Assembly: GCA_012862495.1 (NCBI GenBank)
Contig: BLSG01000208.1
Span: forward strand, 1 to 33,446
Length of the DNA: 33,446 nt
Reading direction: 5' to 3'
Source: Thraustochytrium aureum
Taxonomy: Eukaryota
The position numbers and the translations under genes were made by a program. This document shows positions 893-33,446 of this stretch, piece by piece (within the stretch, counting starts at the first letter, position 1; every line of letters begins with the position of its first letter). The notes below the pieces were generated by a model. The model made no database searches and was not told the DNA's origin. It worked only from the letters and a program-made list of their open reading frames with translations.

Positions 893-1145
893 TTACACGC
901 GCTCGCTTGGATCGCTGGTGAGCCGCCCGAACGTCATCTGAATCTGCGGCCCAGCACTCTTGATGGCGCTGGCGACCTCTGCAAAGCTGCTCGCGAGGAC
1001 AGAGTCACCATTCACCGCAAGCAGGACGTCTTGGAGGCGAAGCAGCCCGCAAGACTCTGCCGGCCCGATCTCCCCGTCCTGCAACGCCTTAAACCCCGTC
1101 ACAATCACAAACCCGCTTTTGGTCATGCCGAGCTTGAGACCGAGC
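893..1145 (-). CDS. C-terminal PDZ domain (PDZ2) of the giant protein
   Basis: Reading from the gap: LGLKLGMTKSGFVIVTGFK...GPAESCGLLRLQDVLLAVNGDSVLASSFAEVASAIKSAGPQIQMTFGR...ERV*. It has a GLGF-like loop, G.A...G.L...D.LLAVNG and the helix B pattern, and resembles PDZ1. Confidence 0.9.
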
Positions 1146-4100
1146 NNNNNNNNNNNNNNNNNNNNNNNNNNNNNNNNNNNNNNNNNNNNNNNNNNNNNNN
1201 NNNNNNNNNNNNNNNNNNNNNNNNNNNNNNNNNNNNNNNNNNNNNNNNNNNNNNNNNNNNNNNNNNNNNNNNNNNNNNNNNNNNNNNNNNNNNNNNNNNN
1301 NNNNNNNNNNNNNNNNNNNNNNNNNNNNNNNNNNNNNNNNNNNNNNNNNNNNNNNNNNNNNNNNNNNNNNNNNNNNNNNNNNNNNNNNNNNNNNNNNNNN
1401 NNNNNNNNNNNNNNNNNNNNNNNNNNNNNNNNNNNNNNNNNNNCGCGCTTTGGAGCAGAAAGCTGATCATGGAAGTGTCGTCGCGGGCCGAAACGAGCTC
1501 GAGCTCCTCTGGCGACTTGCCGGCGCGGTCCATGAGGATCCAGTTTCGCGGAACGCGCTCCTCAGCCCCGTCGCTAAAGCCCACGATGTAGTCGCCGTCG
1601 CCGCAGATGCCGCACACCCAACCTTGGAACGCGGCACCGACGCCGCCATACTGAACCAGGACGCGGGTCCCGATCGGCAGAAACGGACGCACGCGCGACG
1701 GCAGCACGCCGTGCTCGGTGCTACCGTCGTCAAACACAACGTCAAATGTGCCAGAAGACTCGTCGCTGCTCTGCAGCCGGCCCAGGACCCACCGGTCCGA
1801 CGACTCGTCCAATACTTCAACGATCTCCCCGACGTTGACTCGCGTCTTGGGCCGCGAGGTCGCAAAGCGCAAGGCAGCCTCGTCCCCGCTGCGCTCGAGC
1901 TCCACAAACACGTCCTCCAATGAACCAAACCTCCGCCCGTTTACGCGGATGAGCTCATCGTGAATCTGCACCTCACCGCAGCGCTCAGCCTCGCCGATGC
2001 GGGCCTCCCCGTCGTGCTCGCTGTAGACCGGGGTGAACCCAGTCACGACAACGCGGCCCGAGTCCGTCCATCCGAGCTCGAGACCAAGACCGAGCCGCTT
2101 GTTCAGCTTGACCTCATACTCCCACAAGTTCTCGGAGGTGGCCTCGGTGGCAAAATCAAAGTGGTGGGAACGCTTCTCTTCGCCAGAGTGCGCATCGGCA
2201 GGCGGTCCGCCAGCCATGGAACCCTTCGCGCCGTCAGCCGCAGACCCTGCCTCGTCCTCCTCCACCAGAGTGCTCTGCGCCGGGTATAATCGAATGCACG
2301 AACGCTCAACGGCGTCGTCCTCGTCCCCGTCATCGAAGAGGACCTCGTACGAATCGTCGTGCACATTGCGCCGCAAGATGCGCCCCGAATAGTACGAGTC
2401 GTCGTAGTCGTAGTAAACCACCACTCGGACCGAGGGGTACAGGCACTCCTCCAAGGGCTCTGGGCCGACGAATAGGGCTGCGAACGAGAGTTGAAGAATC
2501 TCCACTTCGTCACTGTTCTCCCGCCCGCCACGTCCGCCGCCGCCAGAGACGAGCGGCCCCGCGTCGCCGCTGCTCGCCAAGTCGCCCTTGTCCCCCGAGA
2601 GGCCCTCGGCCGCGCCAGAGCCAGACGCATGGCCAGAAGCTCCTGGCGCAGCCACGGCCAGAACGTTTGCAGCAAAGCCGAGCGCTGCTGCACTTGAGAC
2701 GCCGCCCGAGTTCACCGCGGCGTTTCGCTGGTTGTCCGGCACATCGCTCGGTAGGTCAGTGGAAACAGACCCGGACATGGTCTGCGTGTTGTTGCGCCCT
2801 GGCCGCGTCAAACCGGGCGAGGGCGGCGCCCCGGGCGTCGCGGAGGGCGTGCGCTTCTTGCCTTTGGCCCTGCGCCGCTTCTTGCAAAGCCACGGGTCGC
2901 CCTTCCCCTTGGCGCTCGCGCCGGACGCGGAGCCCTGGTCGTCGCCGTGGTCGGGCCGCAGTTTCACAAAGACTGCGAGTGCGGCAACCACCACGACCAT
3001 TGCGAGCGAACTCAGAACAGCCACAAAAACCCAGCCTCCGCTCGCGTGGCTCGAGCAAGCCGCCGCTGGGGCCTCGCCTGCGCGGCAGTAGCTCATTGAC
3101 ACGTTGTTCACTCCCAAAACGCACGGCGACCCGCTGCTTGACGCCGCGTTGTCGAGGCCCGTTATGCAGCAGTGGTGCTGCGGCTCGGCCCCGCCTTGAC
3201 CGCACACGGCGCAGATGGACTGCATCGCCGTCGCGGCGCCCGCTTCGCCACTCCGCGTGCAGTAAACTGCAAACTGGCTTGCGACCAGCTTGCGAAACCG
3301 CGAGTCCCCCGCGCTCGTGGACAAGTAGCGCGAAACCTCGCCGCTGCGGAGCGCGCTCGTTGGGTCGCTTAGCGCGACCCGCAGTCGGTTCTCGATCTCC
3401 ACGAGCGACAGCGCAGCTCCGGGTACCCCAGTGCGGAAGAAGAGCACCGTCGCTGAGATATCAGCCATGTTTGCTGCCGGCGCGAGGCTGACGACTTCCA
3501 CTTGCTTGTCCGACAAGCCCAGCGCGCTGGAAAGGTCGTTCGCAAGCGCATTCGACGCATTGCTGCTCACCGCCCTGACTGCGCTCACAAAGTCCTCCGA
3601 TTTCCCCAGCACCAACGACTTGGTGCGGATCACAAGCACAGCCTCCAATATGTCCGAGTTCTCTTCCGATTGTGCGGCGCACGGGCCCAGGTTGCAGGCG
3701 CGCGTCAGACTCGTCTCAAATGGGCAGCTCCCCTCCGCCCCAGGATACTCAAACCACACCGCCCGAGACCGCCGCTCCACGCCGGGCCCGCACGCCCTAT
3801 CGCAGAGCGACCAAGGACCCCATTCGCCCACTCGGCACTCGTTGTCCAGGACGCGTGCCTCGATGGATCGCGACGAGCTGCCGCCGTACAGCCCATCCAT
3901 CGACCCAAAAGTGACGCGGACCTCAGCAATCTTGCTATCATCCCCGTCCAAGACATCATCATTGTCCGCCGCGGTCAGCTCGACTGTCTGCGCCACCGAC
4001 CAGGTCTCCGGCTCAAACACGAGCGTCCAGGCCGCGGGAGCCTGGCTAGGCCCAGGCCCAGTCCAGCTGATCACAACGCTCACTGGCGCCCACGGGCGCG

Positions 4101-7100
4101 ACAAAAGGCGAATCGCTACTCGCATCGGAGAGCCCTCGACGAGCCGCATCGAGCCGTCCACAGCGTCCTCGGCCTCGGCGCCGTGCCCAACGTACACAAG
4201 CACAGCAGAACTGGTCATCGTCGTCGGGTCCACGTACTCGAGCGAGACACCAGCGGCGTCGTCGTCGCCGACGAGAGCGCGGATCACCGCTTCAGGGAGC
4301 GCCGCGTAATCCTCGTCAGCGCTCGACACGCGGTGCCTCACCGTGGCGAAGCGCCACTTCGGGCTCTCAGGGTTTCCCCGCTCGTCAATAGCGTTGTCCG
4401 TCTTGACCAGCACCACCTTCTGCGCGACACTCCAGTTCTCCTGGGAAAAGACAAGTCGGCTCGGGCTAGCGCGCACCGCGGTCTCCTCCAGGCACCCATC
4501 GCAACCAAGCCCGTTCGCTTCCTCGTCGCACGACGTCCCAAACCTCGGCTCGCGGAAAGGGCCTTGGAGACACGTCCCGCGGGGCGCCAGGACCTCAACA
4601 ACAACGGGGCTCGACGGCGGCGCGTTCAGCGCCACAGCATACGCGTTCTCGCTCGTGTCACCTTCCGCCAAAGTCAGATTGGCCGCATCAAAAACGAGTC
4701 GCGGGGTTCGCTCCTGAGAAACTTGCACGCGAACGCGCACTGGCTCGAGCATGCTGTACGCCGCATCTGCCGAGGAAAGAGAGAGCACGAGCTCGTGCTG
4801 CGCGGCCGCGTCGTGGCCAGCGCCAAACGGAACGCCGACCATGGCCTCGACCCACCAGGCCTCATCCCAGTCGCCAGGCTCGACAACGATTCGGTTCTGT
4901 TCGACCACGAGCGGGTCTTGCGCTCGCACCATCACAACCACTGGCGCGAACGGGCGCGAGCGAAGCTTGAAGGCAAACACCGGCGACAGCGTATCCCTGA
5001 CAACCGCTTGGTTGCTCAAGATCGCCAGCCCGGCCTCGTCGTCATCCGCGATCGAGGCAGGAACTCTGACCACACCATCAGCGGGAGGCAGCTCAGCGTA
5101 CTCGCGGTCGCTCGCCAACCCGTCGACCCTGACCTCGACCCACGACATGTGCGTGGTTGGCTCCACGGCATAGTCGTCGATTGCGCCAACAGTGATCACC
5201 TTGGGCTGGTCCCAGTCGAGGCTAGTGAATACCATGCGGGGGGTGTCGATTCGAACGCCGAGGCCACGCTCACACGTCAAACCATGCTGCCCTCCGCAGT
5301 CTCCGTCACTCGAACAGGGCAACGAAAAGTCCATTTCCCCAACTTCGGGTGACACCAGAGTACAGTACCCTGACGCCGCGCGAATGTTGAGCACAACGGT
5401 TCCGAGAGGCCGCGAGCCTAGACGGACCTCGATCTGGCCCTCTGGGCCCACTGGAGCCCCCTCTTCGAGAACGATCCCTCCAGGAGATACAACGACGGCG
5501 GCTCGGTCATCGTCATACCTTGTCACCTTGAGAAGCGCGGCATCCACCGTGTTGTATCCAGGGTCCAACGAAGTGGTGGTGTGGCTGCCGATGAGATGCA
5601 CCGGGTTGCCTGACGCCACCTGGTCTGACACGGCACGAATGCTCACCGTCTGCCACTCATCCCAACTTGAGGCTGCGACGTCGAGAGACTCGGGCTCAAA
5701 AACGACAAGGTCAGACCCAAGCGCTTCTGAGATGGCACGGCCGCTCGACAGTTGGCGCATCGTCACAGTCACTGGCGCAAACGGCTGAGAACTGAGGCGG
5801 ACCCGATATGTGGCTACGGTACCCAAGGCTGCGTCGCTGCTTTCGAACACTTCCACAGAGTCTTGGTCGAGCTGCACCCCAGCAAAGTCGTCGTCTTCGA
5901 TGGCGACTTTGACGCCGGGCACGTACCCAAGCTCAAGGCCTCCTTGGAAAATCCGGTGCTTGATCCAGCCAAAATGGTCCCCCTCTGCCCGGGCATCGTC
6001 GTAGGCAAACACCTCAACGAGTTGTGCGTCTTGCCAGTTGCTTGCATCAAAAGCGAGAACGTTGGGGTGGGCCCAGAGCTTGGTTTCGAGCACACAGAAC
6101 TGCATCCTTCCGCACTCACTGTCTTCTGAGCAAAACGAATCCAAGACCGGCACGCCCACGCCAGATTCGCCCGAGACAGTTTGCGCACAGTACCCAGAGG
6201 TAGCCTGGGCCTCGATGGTGACTGGCCCACCATGGCCAACGGCGCTCGGGTCAAACGCGAGTCGCACCGCATATGTAGCCGCTGTCTCACTTCCCTCCTT
6301 CAGGGCGAGCTCGGCGATGGAGCCGCCGCCCACCGCCTCGAGCACCACAAGCGGGCTTTCGTCCTCCGCAACTTGCACGAACAAGTCGACAGAGCCCAGG
6401 TCACGGTACTTGATGTCCCTGGTGTCGATCAAATGGCGCAAGACGAGCGACCCTGGCGCCGACGAGTGCGCGCTCAAGCCCTTCGGCCAGTACATATCGT
6501 CGTCTACAGGGATGACCTGGACGATGCGTTCTTGGTCCCAGTCAGCGGCGGTAAACTCTAGCCATCGCGGCCGCAGCTCCACAGCGCCCTCAGCGACGCC
6601 GTCCGGCATTGTGATAGACACATTGACGGTGGCAAGGGGCCTTGATGAGAGCCTGAGCGTGTAGGTTCCGATCGAACCCTCAAGGATGTCAAGCCTGCCA
6701 ACGTACTCCTCGCCCTCAGCCGCAGACCGAAGCGCGACCTCGGGGCCGCCAACGACAAGACCAGGCCTGTCGCTATCCACGACGCTGTACAACAAGGCGC
6801 GGCTGAGCCCGTCAAAGGGCTCTGACGAGCTCGTCGAACGATGTTCGATTGTCCGGTTCCACGAGCTCCCGTCCGCGACATCGTCAAATAAGGCACGAAC
6901 AGTAACAGTTTGCCACTTGCTCCATGTCTTCTTCTTGAAAACCAGCGCTCGCGGCTCCACCACGACGTTGCTCATTCGCAAGCAATACCGCGTCAGGGAC
7001 CCAGGAGCCCCGTCGTACACGTCGTCATCTGACGCAAGGCCATCAGCCTCGTCAAAGCCCTCGTAGTAATCGCTCCCCTCAGCGTCACGCGAACGATCAC

Positions 7101-10100
7101 AGTCCACATCGTTGTCGCAGAATCGCCCTTCCAGCACCTTGTAGTTTCCGACCACACATCGCCCGTTCGGGACGCGGATCGCAACGCGAACGTCCGAGCG
7201 CGGCGCCGAGGATAGCCGAACGCGATACGAAACCGACTCGCCTTCGATCATCTCGAGTTGCGCAGCGTCAACCTGCAAAGCGGGAACATCGTCATCCACG
7301 ACCTGGATAAGAACAGGACTCGCCAAGGTGGCATTGCCCTCCAAACCGTCGTACGCCACGTCGGACATCGACGTCACGTGGTGCTCGACGCGCGCCGTGG
7401 CCAGCTTGCGATTTGGCGTGTAGACGTTGTCCACGTTGCGCGCTTCCACATGAACGAGCTGAATTTGGTCCCAGTTCGACGAGGTGAAGACGAAGCGCCC
7501 AGAGCCGACGACTTCAAGTATGGATGCGACCTGGGCGTCGCCCCCAAACGTCACGTGGACCTCAACGCGGCCGCGCGGCTGGCTCCGCAAGCGCAACCCA
7601 TAGATTGCCGGCTTGCCCCCCTCGGTTGCCAGCAGATTCACCACACCAGCGCTTCTCCCGGAGCTCGCGAGCGTTTGGATGCCAGCCGTCGGCTCGCCAG
7701 AGTCCACTATGCCAACGCTCACCTCGCGCGGGGTAAAGCGGTCGGGCTCGACCCCGTTGAGATCGCCGACGCTCATCGCGGTGACGCGGACTGCGCTCGA
7801 CTGCATCCCCTCGACGACCTGATCAAGATACGCTCCCACAAACACAACTTGTTGTGCGTCAGAGTCGCTGGCCGAAAACTGGACAAACTCGACCCCTCCG
7901 GCCGCAACGAGAGCGCTCCCAGTTGTACCTGGCACTGCTGCCGCGCTCTCCAGGGCAACCACACTGCCCGTGCCGAGCATGCACGTCGGAAACTCCGCAG
8001 GGCAGTCAGCAGACGCTGCGCAGGGTCTTGGGTCCAGGCCACTCCCGAGAACGTTGTGCACGCAAAAGCCCCCCAGCCCTTCGAACTGAACAATTACGAC
8101 ACCCCGGGACGGAGGCGCACTCAGCGAGACGCTAACAGGCTGCAGCTTGCCGCCTTCCACCACAGTGACCTTGGAATGCGAGAGCTCCACGCGCGAGGCC
8201 TCGTTGTCCTTAATCGAGACGGCGACAGAAGCCAAGCCAAACGCCTGCGTCCTGGCTGCAGCGCGATAGAACGGGTCGCCGTCCGGGACCGCGTCGAGGC
8301 GCGCAGCGACAAGCGTTTGATGGCGCGCAGCGCGAACAACCGTGTCGTCCAAAGCGCGCACATTCACGACAAACCCAAACGCCCACGTCGTTTCATCAAC
8401 CTGGAAGTGGGAAGGTGTCACCTCCACCAGCGTCGAGTCAAAGTCCATCTTGACGCCCACTACCCCGCGTGGCTTGCTGCTCAGCTTGACCACTAGTCGG
8501 TGCTGCGTTGGGTCGCCTTCCTCGAGCTCCAGCTCGCTTGGCTCGACTTGGATACCAGCCGCCAAGTCGCTGTGAACGTGCAGGTGGATAGGGCTTTCCT
8601 CTCGGGCGGACGCTGCCAGCAAGGCGTCAGCTCCAAGGAACTCGAACCGGACAAAGGCGTCATGAGGGGCCCCGCTCGGCCCAACGCTGTCCATGGCCTG
8701 CGACACAATCACGGAAACCGTCCGCGGCTTGTCCCAGTCGTTGCGGGAAAAGACCAGCTCGTCTGGCTCGAGCCGCACGAGCTCGCGCGCCGCGGGAACG
8801 CGGACGCAGAGCTCGTCGGGCCCACAGTCCCGCCAGCGCTCCTCGCAGAGTGGCCCAAGCTCGCCGGACCGCCAGGACGCGCACCTGGACACCTCGGCAC
8901 TGTCGGCATTGCTGTCGAGGCCAACTCCAAGCGGCGCTGAAGTGTCTGTAACGGAGAGCTTGAGCGTGACGCTCTCGGCCATTGGAGGAGAGCGCAGCCC
9001 CTCGACGCGAAATACGGCGCGGCTGCCAGAAAACACGTCCATCTCCCTAGACGCGGGTTCGCCTACAACCAGGCCGCGGGTGCGGCGTGGCCGGATAGAG
9101 ATGATGTAGTTTGCTGCTGCGTCGTCCAGCGTGCAAGCGCAGACCCCGGTTTCGCTCTCGACTGGCGCACAAAGTCCCAGCTCGTCCGCGGGCCGAGTTG
9201 CGAGACGCGCAATGCACTCGAGAGGGGCTGCTACCTGGCCAGCGCCGCCCAGTACTGCGACCGATTCGAGCACAAGCGATCGGACATTCTGCACAACCAA
9301 CATGGGGCCAACAGAAGCGCAGTCTGCGACGTCCTGCGCGAAGGCCAAAATCGACACCTGCCCCTCGCTTGCGCGCCCGAAATGCGCCCCTTTGATCCCG
9401 CCAGCGAACCAGAGCGAGCCGGGAGCCTCCGTCAAAAACGCAACGGTCGCCGCAAGGGCGCCGTTCCTGCCTGCTTCGCCTCGGAACGCGTCGCGTGCCA
9501 ACGGCACTGCAAACGAGAGGACAGCATCAAGGAGGCCGTGAGACCCACACGCAGAGCGTCGCGCCAAGCCGTCGCCACCTTGCATCGAGGAGTGCGGCGA
9601 CCGGGTGTGGATCCACCCAAGTACAATGTCCAACACGCGCCTAACCGCGCTCCGCGCAATCGGCGAGCGCGGTGCGCCTGAGCGCGCCATCCCAACATGC
9701 GCAAGGCGGAGAGCCTCTTGAGCCGCAGAGTCGGAAAGAGCATGTCGGTGGGCGTCCAAGACGGCAGCGAGAGCGCCAACAATCGCCTCCCCGCTGACCT
9801 CTGGCCTGGCCGCTGCGCGACCAACTTCCCCTAGGAGACCTTCAAGGAAGGAGACGTCAGCGGGTCCGATGGCAACGTCGCACCGTGCACCTGCAAAGCC
9901 GGCTGCGCAGCTGCAAAATGAGGCAGCCCTTGAGCCGTCGCCTAGCACCGCCTCGTGGGCGCAAACGCCATCGCCAAGGCAGTCGGCGTCGGAGGCGCAG
10001 CTGCCTGCGCTGAGCCCACGCGCAGCAGTGAGCTCTGCTGCAACGCTAAACAGCTGGACCGCGCGCGACACCTTGCCGCTTCCTAGCGCGCCTTGAATCG

Positions 10101-22100: not shown

Positions 22101-25100
22101 CGACACCACGACGCTGGATTGTGGCCGCTTGTTGAGTCGCACGCCGTACTCGTCCGGCGTTTCGGAGCCTTCGACAACGCTGACATGGTCAACATTGAAA
22201 ACGAGACGCCCACTCGCGTCACTGTCCTGGCCTGCGGGTCCAGAGGTTCGAACGCCCCGAATGGCGCTCTTCTCGAGCAAGGCTCGCGCGTTTGCGGCCC
22301 AGGAGCTAGAGGGCGTGGGCGCGCGTTCCGCGTCTAGAACGGCGAAGTAAAGGTCGTAGGCCGCATTGGCATCGAGGCCCTCTAAGCGGACAACCTGCTC
22401 CACGAAGGCGGCGGGAACGGTGGCTTGCACAACTATGGCGTCCTCCTCGTCCACAGCCCCGCCTTGCTCCTTAAATCCGACAATTTCCTCGAGCGAAGGC
22501 GCGGGACTGCCAGATGCCAAAGCGTACACCTTGACAGCCCCAGGTTTGCTGAGAGCGAGCTTGACAACGAGGGTTGACTCGAGCGCAGCTTCGAGGCGAG
22601 GCCAGGTGTCAAACTTGACCAGACGCTCGGCATTTACGGTATCCTCCTCGGGGGCCGATTCGCTACGTTGTTTCCCATGCATGCGCGAGCGACCGCCTCG
22701 GACGTTGCCATCAGCCACCTTTCCGCTCTCCCCGCAAATGCAGCCGCCGCGTTCGCCTCTCTGGTTGACGCACCACCCACCGTCGCCACCCCCNNNNNNN
22801 NNNNNNNNNNNNNNNNNNNNNNNNNNNNNNNNNNNNNNNNNNNNNNNNNNNNNNNNNNNNNNNNNNNNNNNNNNNNNNNNNNNNNNNNNNNNNNNNNNNN
22901 NNNNNNNNNNNNNNNNNNNNNNNNNNNNNNNNNNNNNNNNNNNNNNNNNNNNNNNNNNNNNNNNNNNNNNNNNNNNNNNNNNNNNNNNNNNNNNNGGGCG
23001 CTGCACTGTAAGGGCCGCAGGAGCAACCCGACCACTTGCCATTCCCCATGAAGCATGAGCAATCGTCGGGCGTCAAGCATTGGCAGCTGTGAACGCAAGG
23101 CACCCCAGGCACCAAGAAGGTCCCGGACAGACCGTCGGTAACACATGGCAAGGCATCCTGGCCCTGCTGCTCGTTGCCTCCCGCGACAGCCTTGCGCGCG
23201 AGGTCTGAGCAAAGCGTGGCTGACGTGCTGTCGAGCTGAAGCGCCATCTCGCGCGCACCCGCAGCAAATGCGCGCTCTGACAGCTCCGAGCGCAGTGCCT
23301 GGTATGTGCCATGGAAGGTATCACAGAATGCTTCGCATTCGGCTTGCGACAAACACGTGAGGCTGATCTGAAACCACAATCCACCACTGAAGGACGCGTC
23401 GTCCTGGTGCAGGGTTGGGCCCGATTTCGCGGCGTGGCCTTGCGAAGACCTTCGTGTTGTCACCGCAGTGGCATTGTCGCGCAATACTTTGGGCGGCGCT
23501 GCCAACTTTGACACTGTACTTGACGGAAGCATCCCTAGGTGCGACTCAACCGTCTTCAGCACCCGGCGGTCTCGAACCGGCTCGGGGTAGCGCAGTCCGC
23601 CGAGCCAAAGGTCGACGACAAACCTCGGGGCTTCTGCAGCGCCGCCTTGGCCTTCGTCTCGCTCACGAGGGTCCACGCCAAGCTCATCATCGCCGTCCTG
23701 GCCATCGCCGCCCACCGCGCCGGAGGCGCCCGCAAGGCGGCCAAGCGGCGGCCGAAAGTTGCCGCTTTGGCTCGGGCCAGAGCTTTCCGCCTCTATCAGC
23801 AAACGCCTACCGCCGCTCGCAAAGGTCGCGGAGACGTCGATGCGGAGCACGGTGCGGCGCTCGCCATTTACGACTACATTTGCTGGGAAGGCATCCACGG
23901 CGTAGGTGAACTCGGGCGGTCCAGTTGCTCTGAACGTGACGTCGTCCAGCCGCATGCGGCTGCGTTCGCTTAGGATGGGTGACACGCGAAGCGTTTCGCT
24001 ATAGAAACGATCGAGCGACACTACGACGCTGCCCGACAACGACACCTCCCCTTGGACGTCCAAGACCCCATACAGCGGCATCGCGCCACCTGCGGGATCC
24101 TCAAGAAGGTCCACCTGGATCGCGGAACGCGAGACCAAGTTGCCAGTCACCACTAGGACGCCAGAAGGATCGTTGGCGGACCCCGCGCGAAGGCTCCCGT
24201 CGTTCACCAGCGAGCCGTCCACGGTGACCGACCCAGAGAGCCGGCCATCAGCTTGCACCGTGAATCCTCCCACGTCGTCGTTGGAGACAGGGGCCATGTC
24301 CGCCAGGAGAAAGGCTGGCACGAGGTCGAGGATGGCCGAGCGCGGCGCGGCAAGGGAGATGACACCGCCGGCAAACTGGGCCGTGCCGTGGATGTCGAAC
24401 TCGCCCGTGTTTAGGATGCCGACCTCACTTGAAAGCGTCGCATCCTGGTCCACGACAAAGCTGCCGAGACAGACCACTTGGTCCACGCTCGTGACCAGCC
24501 CTCCGTCACCCGGGCCAGCTCCAAGTTGCAGAGCATTGACGCTGTCCTCGCTCAGGAGCAGCTCTGCCCCTGGCATCACGAAGATCTCGCCCGTGCTACT
24601 GAGGCTACGCGTCACCACAACAAGCGCCCCCGCCCGCACGGCGAGTTGACCTGATTCGTGCAATGTGAGGTCTGCAATCACGGCTCCGCGTTCAGAGTTC
24701 CCGGCCGCGGCCGCGTCGTTTCCAACAATAACGACGCCGTAGCAGTCCATGAACCCCTCGAGCGAAGCCGTGCCAGAAATTGCAAGCTGCCCGCTGAGAA
24801 TCGTGATGAGGCCACTCGGCGCTGATGCTAAGGGCCCGTTGAGCTCGGCCGAGGACGTGTTGGCCACCAGTGCGCCAGCGACCTGCAGGATCGCACCGGG
24901 AGTCGTCATGAACGCGCCTGTGCTCCCGAGCACAAGCTCGCCGCCGGCCGCCACGCTGAGCTCGCCTTCGTCCACTACCCAGTCGCCACCGAGGAGGTCC
25001 GCCTCGCCGTGGATCGCGACTCGCCCCCTTGCCAAAATAGTAAGGTTTCCGAAGGTCTCGAGCGTGCCGCCGATCTCAGCATCCGCATCGAGAATGAGGC

Positions 25101-28100
25101 GCCCGTCATTCGTGATCGCGCCTTCGCTGGAGAACTGCGCTTTGCCGCCGCCCCGCCCTGGCGCTGTCGCGCTTGGCGAGGCGATATGAAGCAGCCCCGT
25201 TGCGCTGACTAACACGACTCCACTGTTCGCAAACGGGCCGTGAAAGACGGCGCTGTCGCCCCAAAAGACTACTTGGCCTCCTGCCGCGACCACGACAGCT
25301 CCCCGCAGAAAAACCTCGCCCTGGACATCGGCCTTGGCCCGCGCCGCGACGGTCATCGCCCCGGCGCCTTCGAGCGGCCCATCCAGGCCCGCGTTGCCGC
25401 CGATCAGCATCGATCCGTCCAGCATGATTGAACCAGGCGAGATCAAGTCGCCCAAAAACGCAACGTCGCCGTCCGTGCCAATCGCGAGAGTCCCCAGGTT
25501 GCGAGTCGGCACAGCGAGCTGACAGGCCCCGCCAAGCTCCAAAGACGCGCCAACAGAGACATTGAGGACTGCGTGGAAGTCTGACGCGGCAAGTGGTCCC
25601 AGCGTCAGGCGGCCGTCCATGGCCCATGCCCCTGCAGGAGCGACAGCGACTGCCCCTGCACCTTCAAAGGTGCTCTGGGCAGAAGACGTGCACCGCTGCG
25701 ACGCACATGTAAAGGTCGAGCCGAGCCCCGCCGTGATCGCCCCCTCGTGGTCGAGGACCCCAGCCACAAACAGCGTCGCCGACGCGGACAAGTCGACGAG
25801 ACCACCTTCTTGGACCGAGAGACTGCCTGTTTCCGAAAAAGCCGCCCGGTCGCCAAGCTCCAGGACGCCGCTGACGATGAGGGTTCCGGAGCAGTCAAAG
25901 TCGCCGCTGAGGCGCGAGGGCCCCGTCGGGCGCGACCCTATGGTGAAGGTGCCTTGGTTTGAAGTGTGTCCCGTGCTGCGCAGGCGGCCGTTCGCGGTGA
26001 ACACTGCTCCCCGCGCCACCGCGAGCACGCCGTCAGACAGCCACTTTGCATCCCGGTCCATCACGACTTGATCCTCAATCGTAACAACAGCATCAGGACC
26101 TACTGCGACAGAGCCGGTCAACGTGGTGGATCCGCCCATCGTGGCGACGCACGAGCGCTCCACACTAAGCACACCATCGAGCTGGGCGCCCCCTTGGAGG
26201 TCTAGCTTCGCGTCGGCGCCGCGGCACGTCAAGGTGCCCCCGTCTCTGACTTGAGCTTGTCCGGGGCCAGCGAGTTCGGTTCCTTCGAAAGTGAGCGCCC
26301 CGGATTTTGTGACTTGCAGCGTGCCGCTGTTGGAAACAGCTACTTCGTGCGCCGCACGGGCTCGGCCGCCCGGCTTGCCTGGCTGAGAGCGCGCTGCAAG
26401 GTCCTGCGCAAATATCGAGCTGCCCTGGAAGCGGACCTTTCCTTCCGGCTCGACGACGATTTGCGAGCCCTCGTCTGCGGAAAAGTCGCCCTCAAAGACC
26501 AGGGCCGCCCGGCGCTCGACCGAGATGAAGGCCGCCCGCGTCATGTAAAAGGTGCCCCCGAAAAAGGTATTGCTGTCCACCTCGAGCTGGGCGCCGTCCA
26601 TGACCGTCGAGCCGGAATCAGAGACCACCAAATCGCCGCGCCCTGTCGTGGAGCTGCCGTACCCAAACTCAAGGTCGCCTTCGATTTCAGTGACGCTGTC
26701 AGACTCGAAAAGAGCAGTGCCGAAGAGAGCCAGCCCTCCGCCCTCTTGGACGAAGATGTAGCCGTTGCTGTCGAGACCTGCTTCGAAGGTGGCGTTACCC
26801 GTCGATGTCACGTAGATCGACCCCGTCAGGTACACGTCGAGCGCAAAGACCGTCTCGTCGTTGATTGTCAGGTTTCCGTCGATCGTGATGTTGCCCGTGC
26901 TCTCGAAAGGCCCCGCAAACTCCACGTGCGAGTCAGGTCCAATGTAGACCCGTCCGTAATTTTCGAAAGGGTGCTCGAAGAGGACGTTGAACCCATAAAA
27001 GCCGACGTCACCCTCATCCGCAACGGAGATCCCGCCGCGGTCGCTGAGGTCTCCGTTAAAGTCCACGGTAGCCCTTGGCCCAACGTCGATACGGACGTTT
27101 TGGGACTCGGCGAAGGCCAGCGCGACGGCGGCTTCGTGTTGTTCCGCGACGGAGAAAGCGACACTTCCACCGTTCGCCAATCCGGCCGCCGCTAGTGTCT
27201 GGTACGGCGTTGCGTCAAGCACTTGGCCCCACCGCGTTCGTAGTGAGTCGCTGATTCCGCTGGTCGCGCGCTCAGTGCGCACCCCCGAAGCGGATTCTGT
27301 CCCAATTGCAGCCAGAAACAACACCTCACTGAGCGCGGATTTCAAGTCATGTACCGTGCTCGCGGCGCAGGCCCGAACAGGGAGGATCCAGGTCAGCTCT
27401 GGCGAGTGCGTCGGCGAAAACTCGACGTCCAGGTTGACCACGAGGCCCTGCGACTTATCCACTGCCGCGCCAGGGCAGCGCACGGCAACGCGCTCGGGAC
27501 CATACGCAAACAAGTTGCGCTCAAAGGCCGTCACGACCGCGCGCGAGTCGACGCCAACGTGGATCTTACCATCGTTGACAACGTGGCCGTTCAGCGAGAC
27601 CGTGCCGGCGACGTGCATCGAAGAGCCAAGGTCGAGCGCTACCGAGCCTTCCCCAACGTATTTTGCGGTGCAGAGCAGGTGTCCGTCAGGCCCGAGGCCG
27701 ATGTGCCCGCGGTTTTCGACTCGGTTCGTCAGGAGCGAGTATCCTTCAAGGCGCAGTGTCCCCTCCACGATGACTCTGGCGGTAGAAACCAAAGGCCCTC
27801 TAAATACGACCAATTGACCGGCGGGAACGATGAGATCGGAATCAGTGAAGACCGTGCCTTTAAAGACCGTCGTGCTCGTGGTCGCCTTGGCGCTGTCAGC
27901 GCCACCCGAGTACCTGGCAGACTGCTGCAGGAGACGCCGCTTCGTCTTCTGGTCGATTAGTTCGAGAACGTGAAGGCGGCCCCCGCTCGCCAAGCGGACT
28001 GGCCCTTCAAGCGCGAGAGTCGCGGCAGAGCTAACAAACGCGCGCAAGGCACTGCCCTCTGCAACGTGAATGCGACCGGAAAGCGCGCCCGCGGGCTGGC

Positions 28101-31100
28101 CTTGCTGGAGACAACGCTCGCCGCTTGTCGAAGGAACCACAAAAGCCTGCGACCCGTCACGAAGGTCGAGACTCGCTCCAACGAGCAGGCGCAACGAGCA
28201 AGGCCCAACAAAGCTCGCTGTCGATGCGTTTCGGAGCTCAATCCTCGAACCCGCCGCAGCGACGAGAGACCCGCGAACGACGACGGCTCCGCGAACCAAG
28301 GCTTCGCGGCTCGCCAACGCCGCAGCCGAATAGACGTCTTTGCGACTCGGGGTCTCGTCGCGTAACAGGACCGCCGCGACGGGGCTCTGCAAGGCCGACC
28401 CTTGAACGAACCCGCCGAGACTGATTACAGGCGAAGTGGCGCCGAGCTTCCACGTCGCCTCTGGGCCGACCAAGATCGCTCCTCGATTTAGCACCCCAGA
28501 GCTCGCCTCGAACACGCCGCGCGAAAGAGTGAGCACGCCGTCGTTGACAAGAGCAAAGTCCACGGTGGAGGAGCCCCGGACGTCAAGCGCACCAAGGTTT
28601 CGAAGGACGCATTTCCTTTGGAGACCAGAGCAGCGGAGAGCTGTGCCGTCCGCAAGCGCAAGGCGGCCGCCGCTGTGCACAGTCCACTGCGTTCTCTCCG
28701 AAAGCTGCAAACCGCCAAACGGCTCGAGCTCCCAGGCACCAAAACTGTCGACCTGCGCAAGATCCACGAGAGGCAGCATCGCTGACGAGGAATGCTCGTC
28801 AGTCTCGTGCGCTGCGGAAGCGCCGTCGGGCTCCGCCACGACGACGTCACCAAACACGAGAAGGAACGCGGTGCTCGACCCAGTCAGCGTGACGGAACCC
28901 CCAAGCCGAAGCAGGCCACCTGGCAGGACCACGATGCCTTGCTCTAAATGAATGTGCCCAGCATTGGAGAGGTCCAACTCGCCGCCGCGCGCAACAACGC
29001 TCAATCGGCCGACGCGCATGCTCCCAGAAATCCGAAGCCGCTTTTTGGCGCCGCCAAGGGCGCCTTTGGCAGTGTTGGGCCCCAAGAAAAACCCGTCCAG
29101 CAAAACCATGTTCAGGCTGTCCCTGCTTCCCTCAATTGCCAAATCCGGCTCTGCCATCGAGCTAAAATCGTAAAAGCTCAGTATCACGTGAGCCATGGCG
29201 TCCAATGCCGGACCGAGGTCTGTTGCAAGCCTGCAACCGTGCCGCTGCTGGCACAAAAAGTCGGCTCGGTGCAGACTTGCGTAGTCTAGGGCGTCGAGGA
29301 GGCCGTAGCGGAGCGAGCTCGTGACTCCCAGGACCCGAAGCGCCGCGTCGTCGTCCAAGCGGGCGGCGAACCGCGCACCGACCAAAGACCGCACGTCGCC
29401 CAAGCGCTCCATGGCCCTCGCAGGCCCAGCTAGCACGGCCAGACCGCCGTTGAAAAGGCCCCTGTAGGCGTCATGCCACTGAGCCAAAGCTGCGCGTTCC
29501 TCGGCACCTTCAAAGTGCGTTTGATTGAGGCGACCTCCATCAACGCCAGGAAGGGAAGCTGGGCCAGATGTCGCCCCGCAGGCGCCACAGGACCCGCGGT
29601 CGCAGTCGAAAGCGGGGCAGTTGAAGCGAAGGACGACACCCGAGTCTGACACAAAGGTTCCGTCGTCGCAAACGTCGTCGTCCAGGTGCTGCTCGCAAGA
29701 TGTATAGCCGAGCGCTTTCGAGGAGCAGTCGCGGTTGGACACTTTGACGCCGTCGCAGTCGCGTATCCACTCGTCCCCGCCGACAGGCGCTTTGCATTTT
29801 CCAAGCACATGGTCGCAGAACTGCGATCCGCAGTCCTCGTGAGCGGCGCAAGCGGCCCCATTCGCACATGCCCCGCAAAACGGCCCGCCGCAGTCCACGT
29901 CGGTCTCTTCTCCATTCAACACCCCGTCGCCACATGAGGACGCCACGCAGACGCCTTCAGAACTGCATCGACCCGTTCCGCAATCCGATCGACCAGACAA
30001 GTCGAAACGCCTACATCTGAGCACGGCAGCACTGCGCACCACCGCAGTCTACGTCAGTCTCACGGCCGTTCTGAATGCCGTCTCGGCAGGTCTCTGGGCG
30101 GCACACTCCATCAACCTGAGCACAGAAAAGTCCCGCGGCGCAGTCCGCACCTCGGGCGCAGGTCTGGCCAGCCCCGCACGCCACGCAATCCGCGCCAGCA
30201 CAGTCGACGTCTGACTCGTCCCAGTCTTGCAGACCATTTCCGCAGTGCGCGGCGAGACAAACCCCGTCCGACGGGGAGCAGAAGGCCGACGCGCAGTCAG
30301 CGCTGGACAGGCAAGCGCGCTTCGCGTCGCAAGGAGCGCAATCCGGGCCGCCGCAGTCCACGTCCGTCTCGCTCAGGTCCTGCACAGCGTTCGCGCAGGA
30401 CGAGAGCACGCAGACGGCAGCGCTGGAATCGCATTCGAGCCCCACCGCACAATCTTTCGGATCACCGCACGCTTGCCGCGGCCCACATTTCAGGTCGCAT
30501 GGACCTCCGCAGTCGACGTCGCCCTCGCCCTGGTTGAGGACACCGTCGNNNNNNNNNNNNNNNNNNNNNNNNNNNNNNNNNNNNNNNNNNNNNNNNNNNN
30601 NNNNNNNNNNNNNNNNNNNNNNNNNNNNNNNNNNNNNNNNNNNNNNNNNNNNNNNNNNNNNNNNNNNNNNNNNNNNNNNNNNNNNNNNNNNNNNNNNNNN
30701 NNNNNNNNNNNNNNNNNNNNNNNNNNNNNNNNNNNNNNNNNNNNNNNNNNNNNNNNNNNNNNNNNCAGAGTCGCAGCCCATCCCAGCGGCACAATCGGCG
30801 TTCCCGCGGCAAACCGACCCCGTCTGGTTGCAGGGCATGCACGCTGGACCACCACAATCCGCGTCCGTTTCATCGGCGTCCTGCAAACCATTGGTGCAGT
30901 GCTTGGGCTGCAGGGCGCGCCTCCGTAGGAGGGGCTCCCTGGGCAAGCACTGGCCCAGGAGCACGTCGCACGCGTGATCTGGCGCCCCGCAGTCAGCATC
31001 TCGCTCGCAGCCCGCCCCAGTCGCGTTGCACGCAGCGCACTGTCTACCGCCGCAGTCCACGTCGGTCTCGTTGCCGTTCATCACGCCGTCTGCACAGGAA

Positions 31101-33446
31101 GCTGGTACACAGCGCGAGGTAGAGAGGTCACAGACCCCACTGCCACAGTCCCGAGAAGCGGAGCACGCAAGCCCATCTTCGCATGGAACGCAAACCGGGC
31201 CGCCACAGTCGACGTCGGTCTCGGCCCCGCTCTTGCGGCCATCATTGCACTCGCGCGGGATGCAGCGCTGGAGGCGCGCGTCGCAAAAGGTGCTCGAGCA
31301 GTCCCGGTTCTCCTCGCACCGGTGAAGGCCTGTACACGCTGCACAGAGGCGCCCGCCGCAGTCAACGTCGGTCTCATCCCCGTTTTGGAGCCCGTCCGTG
31401 CACGAGAAGGGCATGCAAAGGCCTTTGTCCTCGTTGCAGAGCGAAAAGCAATCTCGGACGGTCAGGCACGCAGAGCCGTCCTCACAAGGTGCGCAGTGCG
31501 GCCCCCCACAGTCCACGTCGGTCTCGTTGGCGTTCAGCACCCCATCGGTGCAAGACTCTGGCACACATTTGGCCAAAGCCGGGTCGCAGTGGCCGCTGGC
31601 GCAGTCGCGACCAACCTGGCAAAAAAGACCGGTCGCGCACGGCGTGCAAGCAGAGCCGCCGCAGTCGACGTCGGTCTCGTTGCCGTTCAGCACGCCGTCT
31701 GTGCAGCTCGCAGGGACGCAGACGCCGGCATCAGGGTCGCACGCCCCGCTGCCGCAGTCGAGAGCCGAGTCGCACGCAGAGCCCAGCTCGCATGGAGCGC
31801 AGTTTTCGCCTCCACAATCCACGTCCGTCTCGTCGCCGTCCTGAGACCCATTCGCGCACGAAACTGGGTAGCAGAGGCCATGTGTGGCGTCGCAAAAGGC
31901 CACGCCCGACAAGCAGTCGCGGTCTACCAGACATTGGTCCCCGACTGAGCACGGCGGGCAAAGTGGCCCTCCGCAGTCCACGTCCGTTTCGTTCCCGCTT
32001 CGCTTTCCGTCCGAGCAGGTGCGGGGCATGCACATTTGGGCTTCGTCGTTGCAAGCCCCGCTCGCGCAGTCGGTGTTCTGGTCGCAGGCAAGGCCGTCGT
32101 CGCAGGGCGAGCAGACAGACCCGCCGCAATCGGTGTCGGTTTCGTTTTGGTCGAGCTTGCCGTTGCGGCACGACCGCGGAAGGCAAACATGAGCTACGTC
32201 GCAGCAGACCTCGGACTCGCAGTCTGCATCCGAGGCACAAACGCGACCGACATCGCACTGGCCGCACAATTCACCCCCACAATCGACATCGGTTTCGAAG
32301 CCATTCAAGACGCCGTCAGAGCACGAGGCGTCCAGGCACGTGCCGAGGTGTGGGTCGCACAAACCGCTGAGGCAATCGGCCGCGGTCTCACAATCTTGGC
32401 CCGCCTGGCATCGTGGGCATACGCGACCGCCGCAGTCGATGTCGGTCTCATTGCCGTTCTGCACGCCGTCAAGGCACGATTTGGGCATGCACAGTCCATT
32501 CTCTGCATTGCATTTGCCGCTGCGGCAGTCGGCGTCGCGGTTGCACTCCGCGGCGTCTTCGCATGGCGGGCAGAGCGGGCCGCCACAGTCAACTGCGGTC
32601 TCGTTGCCATCGAGGACGCCGTTCGCGCAGGCCGCTGCCAAGCAGCGGCCGCTTGCCGAGTCGCACAAGGCGCTATCGCAGTCGCGCCCGGTGTTGCAAA
32701 GCCGGCCGTCCTCGCATGGAAGGCAGTCTGGGCCGCCGCAGTCCACGTCCGTCTCGTTTTGGTCGCGCAGGTGGTTGCGGCATGCGACAGCGAGGCAGAT
32801 GCCGTGCTCCGCGTCACAGGTTGCACTCTGGCAGTCTTGGTCTTCCGCGCAAGTCGAGCGCAGCCCGCAAGGTGGGCAGTACTCGCCGCCGCAGTCGACG
32901 TCGGTTTCCCACTCGCCGCCAAAAGCATCCTTGACCCCGTTCGAGCAGGTCAAGGGCATGCACTTGCCAAAGTCGCCTGCCTCGGCGGAGGGCCCTGGCT
33001 CGCCGCACAGGCCGGAGGAGCAATCTCCGTCGAGTCGGCAAGCCGCGGAGATAGCACACGGCGTGCAGATTGGCCCCCCGCAGTCGACGTCGGTCTCGTT
33101 GCCGTCGAGGACCCCGTTTCGACATGTTGCTGCGAGGCAGCGCCCGCTTTGCGCGTCGCAGAGGCCCGAGAGACAGTCGCTGTCCGCGTCGCAGTTGCGG
33201 CCGTCCGAGCAAGGCGAGCACGTCCCGCCGCCGCAGTCGATGTCTGTCTCGTTGCCGTCGAGCAACCGGTTGCTGCAGGCGCGCGGGAGGCAAACGTTGC
33301 GCACTTCGCAGCAGTGCTCGCTCTCGCAGTCGGTCGCAGATGCGCAAGCGCGAAGGTCGCGGCACCTCGAGCAGACGAGGCCGCCGCAGTCAACGTCGGT
33401 CTCGAGCCCGTTGCGCCGCCCGTCAACACAAGAGGAGTCAAGCATG
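893..33446 (-). CDS. Giant multidomain single-pass membrane adhesion/receptor-like protein (composite model, about 10,800 aa or more, 5'-partial)
   Basis: Five co-oriented minus-strand ORFs (30011-33445, 22711-30042, 15525-23042, 1123-15717, 893-1126) tile the region with no intergenic space. The junctions at ~30028/~29987 and ~15740 are 1-bp deletions inside repeat units that are restored on correction. The other two junctions are N-gaps. Only one clear TM helix is seen, and no signal peptide at any internal ATG. Stop TAA at 893-895. Confidence 0.8.
1534..1839 (-). other. Tandem Tudor/SH3-like barrel domains 2 and 3 (cytoplasmic)
   Basis: VNVGEIVEV....RWVLGRL......TFDVVFDDGSTEHGVLPSRVRP and LPIGTRVLVQY.....FQGWV......YIVGFSDGAEERVPRNWI match the Tudor/Agenet pattern G..V......W/F.G.I.....Y.V.FDDG..E.V....I. 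Confidence 0.75.
1858..2121 (-). other. PDZ domain 1 (cytoplasmic)
   Basis: YEVKLNKRLGLGLELG...VVVTGF...GEAERCGEVQIHDELIRVNG...LEDVFVELERSGDEAALRF has a K-x-x-GLGL loop and the D.LIRVNG motif. Confidence 0.9.
2284..2442 (-). other. Tudor-like domain 1 (cytoplasmic), aromatic-rich
   Basis: LYPSVRVVVYYDYDDSYYSGRILRRNVHDDSYEVLFDDGDEDDAVERSCIRLY. Confidence 0.8.
2965..3033 (-). other. Single transmembrane helix
   Basis: WVFVAVLSSLAMVVVVAALAVFV is 23 uncharged residues followed by KLR (positive-inside rule). It separates the disulfide-rich ectodomain from the PDZ/Tudor tail. Confidence 0.9.
3320..3650 (-). other. SEA-like juxtamembrane module
   Basis: ILEAVLVI...ALANDLSSALGLSDKQVEVVSLAP...ATVLFF...EIENRLRVALSDPTSALRSGEVSRYL resembles the 'DLA.ALG.....V.V..L' and 'DP.S.LR.G' SEA-like modules of protist surface proteins. 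Judged by eye. Confidence 0.55.
3679..3840 (-). other. Thrombospondin type-1 repeat (TSP1)
   Basis: ECRVGEWGPWSLCDRACGPGVERRSRAV......GSCP....TRACNLGPC has canonical WxxWxxC...CG.G...RSR and 6 Cys. Confidence 0.95.
3845..9075 (-). repeat. Membrane-proximal block of 12 Calx-beta/cadherin-like beta-sandwich repeats
   Basis: Recurring G.V....L.V.EG....Y.V.L.S.P...V.V...P..L.F...NW...Q.V.V.A.DD......H...S.D..Y......V.D.D; 12 copies counted by the F..x(N/D)W motif. Confidence 0.85.
9100..11035 (-). other. Polycystin/REJ-associated block: pre-REJ beta domain, REJ C-terminal-like segment, EGF-like domain (9877-9999), helical GAIN-like region, degenerate GPS-like motif (9100-9220)
   Basis: In order: LVSANLTSTGRHLVVTFDRPT...LGPDAACWWLDESRLVVALG; G.GLTSRFEL...W....LQYTF...LPPG....AMDEHGA; EGF CASDADCLGDGVC...CSCAAGFAGARC; an Ala/Leu helical stretch; LEC...GLC.......CACTL....Y. 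Confidence 0.55.
11200..22210 (-). repeat. Distal block of 26 Calx-beta/cadherin-like repeats (spans the 15740 frameshift)
   Basis: Same consensus as the proximal block. 16 complete copies lie in ORF 15525-23042, one straddles the junction, and 9 more lie in ORF 1123-15717. Confidence 0.85.
22330..22620 (-). other. Fibronectin type III-like domain
   Basis: LVVKLALSKPGAVKVYALASGSPAPSLEEIV...VVRLEGLDANAAYDLYFAVLD has the FN3 'GL....Y.L' tyrosine-corner pattern. Confidence 0.6.
24010..29020 (-). repeat. Autotransporter-passenger-like beta-helix region (about 1,600 aa)
   Basis: Continuous Gly/Val/Ala/Ser-rich short repeats of the type N.G.L.V..GG.L...G. The region ends in SGSVTVDGSLVNDGSLRAGS...GVLVVTGNL....IQVDL...LDVQGEVSLSGSVVVSL, which resembles the C-terminal cap of bacterial passenger domains. 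Confidence 0.7.
27148..27450 (-). other. Ubiquitin-like (beta-grasp) domain inserted in the beta-helix
   Basis: VNLDVEF...LTWILPVRACAASTVHDLKSALSE...LRTRWGQVLDATPYQTLAAAGLANGGSVAFSV has the TV.DLK..L, G..L and TL...GL..G..V hallmarks of UBL domains. Confidence 0.6.
29578..29770 (-). other. LNR/Notch-like Cys-Asp module
   Basis: DCDG...CEQHLDDDVCDDG......FNCPAFDCDRGSC resembles the LNR consensus C....GDG.CD..CN...C..DGGDC. Confidence 0.55.
29785..33446 (-). repeat. Array of at least 22 Cys-rich ~51-aa repeats (C.DG..NG.ETDVDCGG..C..C..G..C....DC.SG.C......C)
   Basis: 22 E(T/S/G)xxDC(G/A)G motifs counted, usually 8 Cys per unit. The N-gap at 30549-30765 probably hides about one more unit, and the array runs off the window end. 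Confidence 0.95.

Follow-up and report, generated by a model that had tools for sequence, protein, structure and literature searches.

The window analyzed here is a 33,446-nucleotide stretch of Thraustochytrium aureum DNA (GenBank assembly GCA_012862495.1, contig BLSG01000208.1, positions 1 to 33,446). Six-frame translation revealed five long minus-strand open frames that tile the window from position 33445 to 893, and these are very probably pieces of one eukaryotic gene, broken mainly by assembly errors (Table 1). The gene very likely encodes a single-pass membrane protein of approximately 10,800 residues or more. The scaffolded span comprises ~10,850 codons (~32.5 kb), and no stop interrupts the 10,560 codons that are in frame and free of N; at the composition of the window, a 4,800-codon open frame would arise by chance with a probability of ~1e-59. 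The GC content at third codon positions was 0.70–0.77 throughout, and codon usage was correlated at 0.85–0.96 among six long segments. The frame breaks sit within repeat units, in an immunoglobulin-fold (Ig) unit at 15731 and in a Cys repeat at 29989/30027. The Met at 33445 runs straight into a Cys repeat, and no signal peptide occurs there, indicating that the true start lies upstream, outside the window. The preliminary description of this DNA, made from its letters alone, had proposed ~32.5 kb of minus-strand coding sequence interrupted by N-gaps or 1-bp indels in repeats, with an ATG at 33445 inside a repeat, and both statements agree with the tiling frames. Its list of breaks was right for the 1-bp indels and two of the gaps but omitted the gap at 30549–30765 and the compensated indel pair at 15815/15821.

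Table 1. Features of the giant receptor-like gene and its assembly breaks in the 33,446-nucleotide window.
Feature	Position	Strand	Evidence or remarks
Fragment 1	33445–30014	-	Open frame; contains N-gap 30549–30765
Fragment 2	30048–22714	-	Open frame
Fragment 3	23072–15528	-	Open frame
Fragment 4	15843–1126	-	Open frame
Fragment 5	1561–896	-	Open frame; stop TAA 895–893
Cys-rich 51-residue repeat array, ETDVDCGG-type core	29790–33446	-	22 units by profile; runs off window
Small Cys-rich module (candidate LNR)	29575–29769	-	No Pfam match at E 1
Gly/aliphatic-rich, Cys-poor region of ~1,750 residues	23854–29151	-	Likely beta-solenoid
First Ig-fold array	11197–22220	-	25 units of ~115 residues (+ one weak), many with 4-Cys insert
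Pre-REJ domain	10588–11031	-	Precedes REJ in polycystin-like protist proteins; follows Ig unit 25
Truncated REJ end, helices with EGF-like insert, short beta region ending in CxC	9088–10455	-	Beta region in GAIN-like position; hhalign, Atlas
Second Ig-fold array	3838–9084	-	12 units, alternately with and without Cys insert
Thrombospondin type 1 (TSP1) domain	3679–3837	-	PF00090 27.1 bits, cut-off 21.6
Alpha/beta region (candidate SEA) and Cys-rich linker	3040–3666	-	17% identity to L001
Single transmembrane helix, then basic residues	2965–3027	-	Hydropathy 2.85
Inner tail: Tudor-like, PDZ, two Tudor/SH3-like barrels	1528–2433	-	35–60% identity to L001
Second PDZ and stop codon	893–1144	-	PDZ_6 31.1 bits, cut-off 27; 56% identity to L001 C-terminus
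Two single-base omissions	29989–30027	-	38 bases apart, one Cys repeat; extra base at both in 4/4 runs
Single-base omission (frame break) and compensated indel pair	15731; 15815/15821	-	Read runs
N-gap	22794–22995		Between two Cys-rich EGF-like flanks; bridged by one X1 contig
N-gap	30549–30765		Inside fragment 1; Cys repeats on both sides
N-gap	1146–1443		298 N; orthologue L001 continuous, ~28 residues

The frame breaks were compared with four read runs (X1–X4, from two studies) aligned to positions 13447–33446. Behind 15731, an extra base was present in both covering runs (X1 and X4; X2 and X3 had no depth there), and the compensated pair occurred in all four. At the gap at 22794–22995, the joint in the X1 contig (22793–22996, with 42 letters on its short side) implies by hand arithmetic ~387 nucleotides between the flanks, a length divisible by three, and a loose end of X4 continues into the next frame for 10 open codons. 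In all four runs, 30766 is linked to another Cys repeat, and the gap at 30549–30765 must therefore be longer than scaffolded; the run tables, read by hand, place at least one further Cys repeat unit inside it. Scaffold gap sizes are thus unreliable. Of the breaks that the preliminary description had located at 15740, 22794–22995, and 29987–30028, the runs carry the missing bases of the two indel sites, and one contig joins the gap. The remaining listed joints are situated in the Cys-repeat array, and no joint within 13447–33446 has intron-type ends. The earlier assertion that the gene is intronless therefore stands for the sequenced parts and not for the interior of the gaps; a small intron may lie within that at 1146–1443. 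The runs and the window diverge by ~0.7%, and one of the runs may be related to the source of the window. Among the 40 variants listed of 252, 26 were silent, 29 were at third positions, and none created a stop.

The last third of the protein is conserved in another organism. When metagenomes were scanned with the inner tail, 308 pattern matches resulted, which were reduced to six loci, one of which (L001) was a true orthologue. L001 is a single frame of 3,771 amino acids, still open where the fetched flank ends, with a GC content of 43.6% versus ~63% in the window. It shares 27% identity with the window protein over 3,591 aligned residues, followed in order by 38% in the tail and 56% in the last PDZ domain, and the two genes terminate at the same place. 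The colinearity of L001 with the last two fragments means that fragments 4 and 5 are joined across the gap at 1146–1443. In addition, 14 of 16 Ig units in L001 best matched their positional counterparts, and the alternation of Cys inserts was also kept. L001 is unbroken over the 3,771 amino acids read; its contig has 33.6 kb upstream of the stop, enough for ~11,200 codons. Together with the read runs, L001 gives good support to the one-gene reading proposed earlier. A convergent WD40/BING4CT (Utp7-like) gene adjoins the orthologue (L001 11428–13098), indicating that the locus is eukaryotic; no neighbor gene, including a WD40/BING4CT counterpart, was common to L001 and positions 1–900 of the window. 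No relatives were found in a first metagenome scan, a first genome scan, or a viral scan.

Most of the extracellular part consists of 37 Ig units, 15 of which contain at least four Cys residues. A model of the unit, built from a 34-unit alignment, had a predicted local distance difference test (pLDDT) score of 94.7 and the fold of an Ig-like beta-sandwich. Foldseek ranked PapD-like chaperones first, and in a wide structure search, PapD-like folds (Z 11.2) were tied with the calcium-binding domains of NCX1/CALX (Z 10.4–10.7; root-mean-square deviation 3.0–3.2, 105–110 aligned residues, highest identities 16–21%). The label Calx-beta, which the units had been given previously, is therefore appropriate for the fold, in a tie with PapD-like proteins, but the units fall below the Pfam cut-off for Calx-beta (PF03160), as do those of L001 (14.3 bits). 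Five fixed acidic columns were found in 30, 25, 32, 25, and 25 of the 34 units; these may correspond to known calcium-ligand positions, and calcium may bind at the unit junctions. Giant bacterial proteins are packed with this unit (89 matches, 21–41% identity, many annotated as Calx-beta); they resemble the window protein in having acidic Ig units in tandem, as many as 41 in one protein, but have almost no Cys inserts, no REJ, and no PDZ/Tudor tail. The gammaproteobacterium AqS3 has five such giant proteins (P0021, P0025–P0027, and P0029) with 29–41 copies of the unit.

Between the two Ig arrays lies a REJ-type module. Its pre-REJ domain scored 43.4 bits with a profile of eight relatives (best of 200 shuffles, 4.7 bits) and 36.9 bits in L001. 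The first 220 residues of the REJ end reached 91% in hhalign, compared with 0.1% for the reversed control, and the Atlas assignment was REJ (0.93, 186 features); in L001, Pfam REJ matched positions 316–452 (E 4e-5, 22.8 bits versus a cut-off of 25). However, the REJ core is missing, with 131–165 residues between the flanks versus 507–702 in six relatives. The CxC at the end of the module aligns with the GPS cysteines of a polycystin-like protein (P0002), which has the HL|T/S cleavage triad, whereas the triad is absent after the aligned CxC in both the window and L001. The model of positions 9088–10455 (pLDDT 44.6) had the order beta-helices-EGF-helices-beta. The module ends at approximately residue 2240 of fragment 4 and the helix is at residue 4273, which places it ~2,000 residues from the membrane. 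Of the REJ/GAIN region described earlier, the REJ flanks are thus supported, but the core and the cleavage triad are missing and the GAIN fold is unconfirmed.

The single helix near the C-terminus, noted in the preliminary description, has its counterpart in L001, where a lone helix occupies the corresponding position. The TSP1, PDZ, and Tudor domains it named all exceed their Pfam cut-offs (Tudor_3, 32.1 bits, cut-off 25.8), and the 53BP1 Tudor domain matched with E 0.002. The inner tail is the best-conserved part of the protein (Tudor 49–60% and the second PDZ 56% identity). The first PDZ and the second and third Tudor domains are weak in the window, the former being clearer in L001, which has two PDZ stretches; NCBIfam gave only weak PDZ-protease matches. 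The names SEA, for the alpha/beta region, and LNR, for the small Cys-rich module, are unproven, with no match at E 1 for SEA in the window or L001 and none for LNR in the window. A short AAG-type repeat (834–871) just after the stop codon is likely to belong to the 3' untranslated region.

At the distal end, the Cys repeats have a period of 51 residues and 12 invariant columns in 22 units. No Pfam family scored above the cut-off, no solved relative was found, and searching PDB sequences with the profiles of the Ig unit and the Cys repeat returned nothing useful. Repeats of this ETDVDCGG type are common in Myxococcota and archaea, with relatives making up 588 of the 633 pattern matches examined (44–63% identity in the 80 shown); in the window, at least 22 tandem copies are carried by a eukaryotic receptor. 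Conotoxin and Dickkopf were rejected as relatives because their scores were weak and below the cut-off. The region at 23854–29151 is likely to be a beta-solenoid: a recurring motif occurs 13 times (mean 0.2 and maximum 3 in 1,000 shuffles) and periodicity is present. The beta-helix proposed previously is in line with this enrichment, and the first Atlas match, an autotransporter passenger (0.77), is a lead only. Basic RRLL/RRRL motifs, possible processing sites, occur near 27930 and 23800 of the window, near 9120 of L001, and in several relatives, and cleavage there could release the distal part. The ~125 residues before the first Ig unit (22248–22625) look fibronectin-type by eye, with no Pfam match.

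The outer order of the window protein, namely Ig units, pre-REJ, a REJ-type region, CxC, Ig units again, TSP1, and one helix, recurs in a 4,490-residue protein (P0087) of a public assembly, suggesting that the window protein belongs to a family, a point that goes beyond the preliminary description, as does the position of the REJ module in the middle of the ectodomain. In P0087 there is also a single, incomplete Cys repeat of the window's type (22.5 bits with a single-sequence threshold). P0087 differs in its full-length REJ region, its multiple TSP1 and EGF domains, and its low-complexity tail, and lacks the PDZ/Tudor domains, long Cys array, and solenoid; no long Cys array reached the profile cut-off in any of 99 related proteins. 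Among the relatives of the modules, those with a name are oomycete proteins, which points tentatively to a stramenopile lineage, perhaps an intron-poor labyrinthulomycete. The polycystin-1/REJ-like proteins used for comparison (Aphanomyces VFT98320 and ETW01090; P0002, P0052, and P0068; Ectocarpus Esi0130_0068) include polycystin-like protist proteins that share with the window protein Ig units with Cys inserts, the pre-REJ domain, the REJ end, helices with an EGF insert, and CxC. Whereas these proteins have a full REJ region followed directly by several helices, in the window protein the REJ core is absent and what follows is another Ig array, TSP1, and a Tudor/PDZ tail with one helix. Five of the polycystin-like proteins (P0002, P0004–P0006, and P0052), with Ig arrays and REJ, appear to be undescribed, and four have tetraspanin-type helices.

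Within adhesion G-protein-coupled receptors (GPCRs) and polycystins, the GAIN domain lies directly before the membrane part and carries the HL|T/S triad, according to the available sections of two sources (PMC11697300; PMC12716839). The window protein has neither a multi-pass region after the GPS position nor a seven-helix domain, with one helix in both the window and L001, and its module does not directly precede the membrane part. With one helix and a module ~2,000 residues from the membrane, it is neither an adhesion GPCR nor a polycystin-1, yet it is built like both. ADGRV1/VLGR1 is described as a protein of ~6,300 residues with 35 Calx-beta repeats, seven helices, and 90 exons (PMC13729602). 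It also has a GAIN/GPS beside the helices and a PDZ-binding motif. It resembles the window protein in its very long Calx-beta-type Ig array, its GAIN-region module, and its context of adhesion and force; in contrast, the window protein has one helix, no triad, PDZ domains within the tail itself, and no introns seen. The extracellular sponge aggregation factor MAFp4 has 29 Calx-beta domains and functions in calcium-dependent adhesion (PMC11670116); unlike a single-pass receptor, it is secreted and forms a ring-and-arm complex that has a wreath domain. The architecture is new and assembled from known parts; consistent with the preliminary description, no characterized protein with this combination emerged from a literature search confined to main texts and largely to papers outside subscription, and the available main text of PMC12221091 mentions no Calx, PKD, or thrombospondin.

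The protein searches spanned 2,640–8,400, 1,421–4,055, and 3,759–5,000 amino acids, ranges that leave full-length relatives out of reach, and that over 1,421–4,055 amino acids returned no relatives. A representative library (1.84 billion) gave one 36-residue match, to an unrelated repeat, and did not return the L001 orthologue, which would score E 2e-30 there. This null result was therefore rejected as a sign of orphan status, and it suggests that giant genes are missing from, or fragmented in, protein collections.

We favor, with modest confidence, the interpretation that the protein is a surface tether linked to a scaffold and having a signaling role, possibly a force-sensing adhesion tether. 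The distal Cys repeats and the likely solenoid would bind the substrate, prey, or another cell, and the 37 Ig units would form a calcium-stiffened spacer directed outward, by analogy with a bacterial Ig adhesin; at the ~4.75 nm per unit of that adhesin, 37–38 units would extend ~0.15–0.18 micrometre if stretched out. A calcium-rigidified Ig rod has been shown for the Marinomonas ice adhesin, in the available part of PMC4083281, which serves here as a functional model only, its repeat not having been compared with the window unit. Inside the cell, the Tudor and PDZ domains would tie the protein to a cortical scaffold, to which force would pass through the helix. The REJ remnant is most likely uncleaved, because the triad is absent in both organisms, and would most likely serve as a hinge or binding platform rather than a self-cleaving switch. 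Such a protein most likely arose from a protist receptor of the polycystin-like kind, with Ig units, REJ, GAIN, and many helices, that lost the REJ core and the multi-helix part and gained the second Ig array and the one-helix PDZ tail. A more specific proposal, put forward tentatively, is that of an undescribed family of giant single-pass protist receptors: a REJ/GAIN-type module of polycystin origin would have left the membrane for the middle of a calcium-stiffened Ig rod and would bear load there as a hinge that is not cleaved, and a built-in Tudor–PDZ scaffold would read force with no seven-helix or channel part.

Several observations weigh against this interpretation and the gene model beneath it. 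The start codon and signal peptide were not seen within the window. The read comparison covers only positions 13447–33446 of the window, and no single run contig covers the entire stretch; X1, X3, and X4 were taken as RNA by guess, none being recorded as such. The 168-letter loose end at the gap at 30549–30765 is out of phase if exact. L001 was read for its last 3,771 amino acids only. The Ig units scored 17.7 bits with PF03160 (cut-off 27), and the GAIN fold was not confirmed, as the low-confidence model matched generic helical repeats only. Profile alignment of the REJ end of P0087 with that of the window gave 0.1%, and Pfam REJ had no match in P0087, so its REJ-type part rests on the order of domains and the pre-REJ motif.

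The same single gene might instead encode a structural filament that plays a passive part in the cell coat or an extracellular net, with a tail that anchors and traffics but sends no signal. In favor of this, the chain is mostly repeat spacer, Pfam-type domain searches of the window and L001 revealed neither an enzyme nor a channel domain, and the triad for cleavage is lacking. We nevertheless regard this as unlikely, because the tail is the best-conserved part and the unit order and REJ remnant have been kept at 27% identity, beyond the need of a plain spacer. Rather more improbable is a recognition receptor of the polycystin-1/REJ type, acting on gametes, kin, or prey with a separate channel subunit. 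The homology of the REJ flanks to polycystin-like proteins of Aphanomyces and other eukaryotes, and a brown algal REJ+GPS protein linked to male gametes in the accessible part of PMC4700764, point in this direction, but the single helix, the loss of the REJ core, and the distance of the module from the membrane do not fit. It is very improbable that the locus holds two adjacent genes, for a secreted Cys-repeat/beta-solenoid protein and an Ig-array receptor, split in the gap at 22794–22995 or 30549–30765. Such a split would draw on the incompletely seen gap letters, the out-of-phase loose end, the lack of a long Cys array in the relatives found, and the unread 5' part of L001. However, the ~387 nucleotides in the X1 contig are in phase and too short for a stop, a promoter, and a signal peptide, both flanks of that gap are Cys-rich, the same repeat lies on both sides of the other, and fragments 2–5 lack a signal-like segment after their first Met. 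A decaying pseudogene with real frameshifts is scarcely credible: the window carries three frame breaks and the diverged runs may represent another strain, but every covering run has the missing bases, the variants are mostly silent, and no in-frame stop occurs.

The protein displays an animal-style adhesion-receptor design (long Ig rod, polycystin-type module, TSP1, and PDZ scaffold) that is conserved in a microbial eukaryote. The protein is nearly twice as long as ADGRV1, apparently without introns, although its size is no record (PKZILLA-1 has 45,212 amino acids; 10.1101/2024.01.29.577497). As the available sections of PMC11697300 describe GAIN domains only adjoining the membrane, in two families, a displaced and uncleavable remnant would provide a natural test of the non-cleavage role of the module. 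If the more specific proposal is true, a GAIN-lineage module would here, for the first time, be seen at work in a protein that is neither an adhesion GPCR nor a polycystin, a one-exon chain of ~11,000 residues.

Two minor observations concern sequences outside the gene. Downstream of the gene, positions 251–358 of the window contain three tandem copies of a 35-bp unit that are 97% alike. Another metagenomic locus (L002, 2–736) has an open frame that, by eye, resembles a glyoxalase-type domain fused to a Tudor-like barrel of the kind found in the tail.

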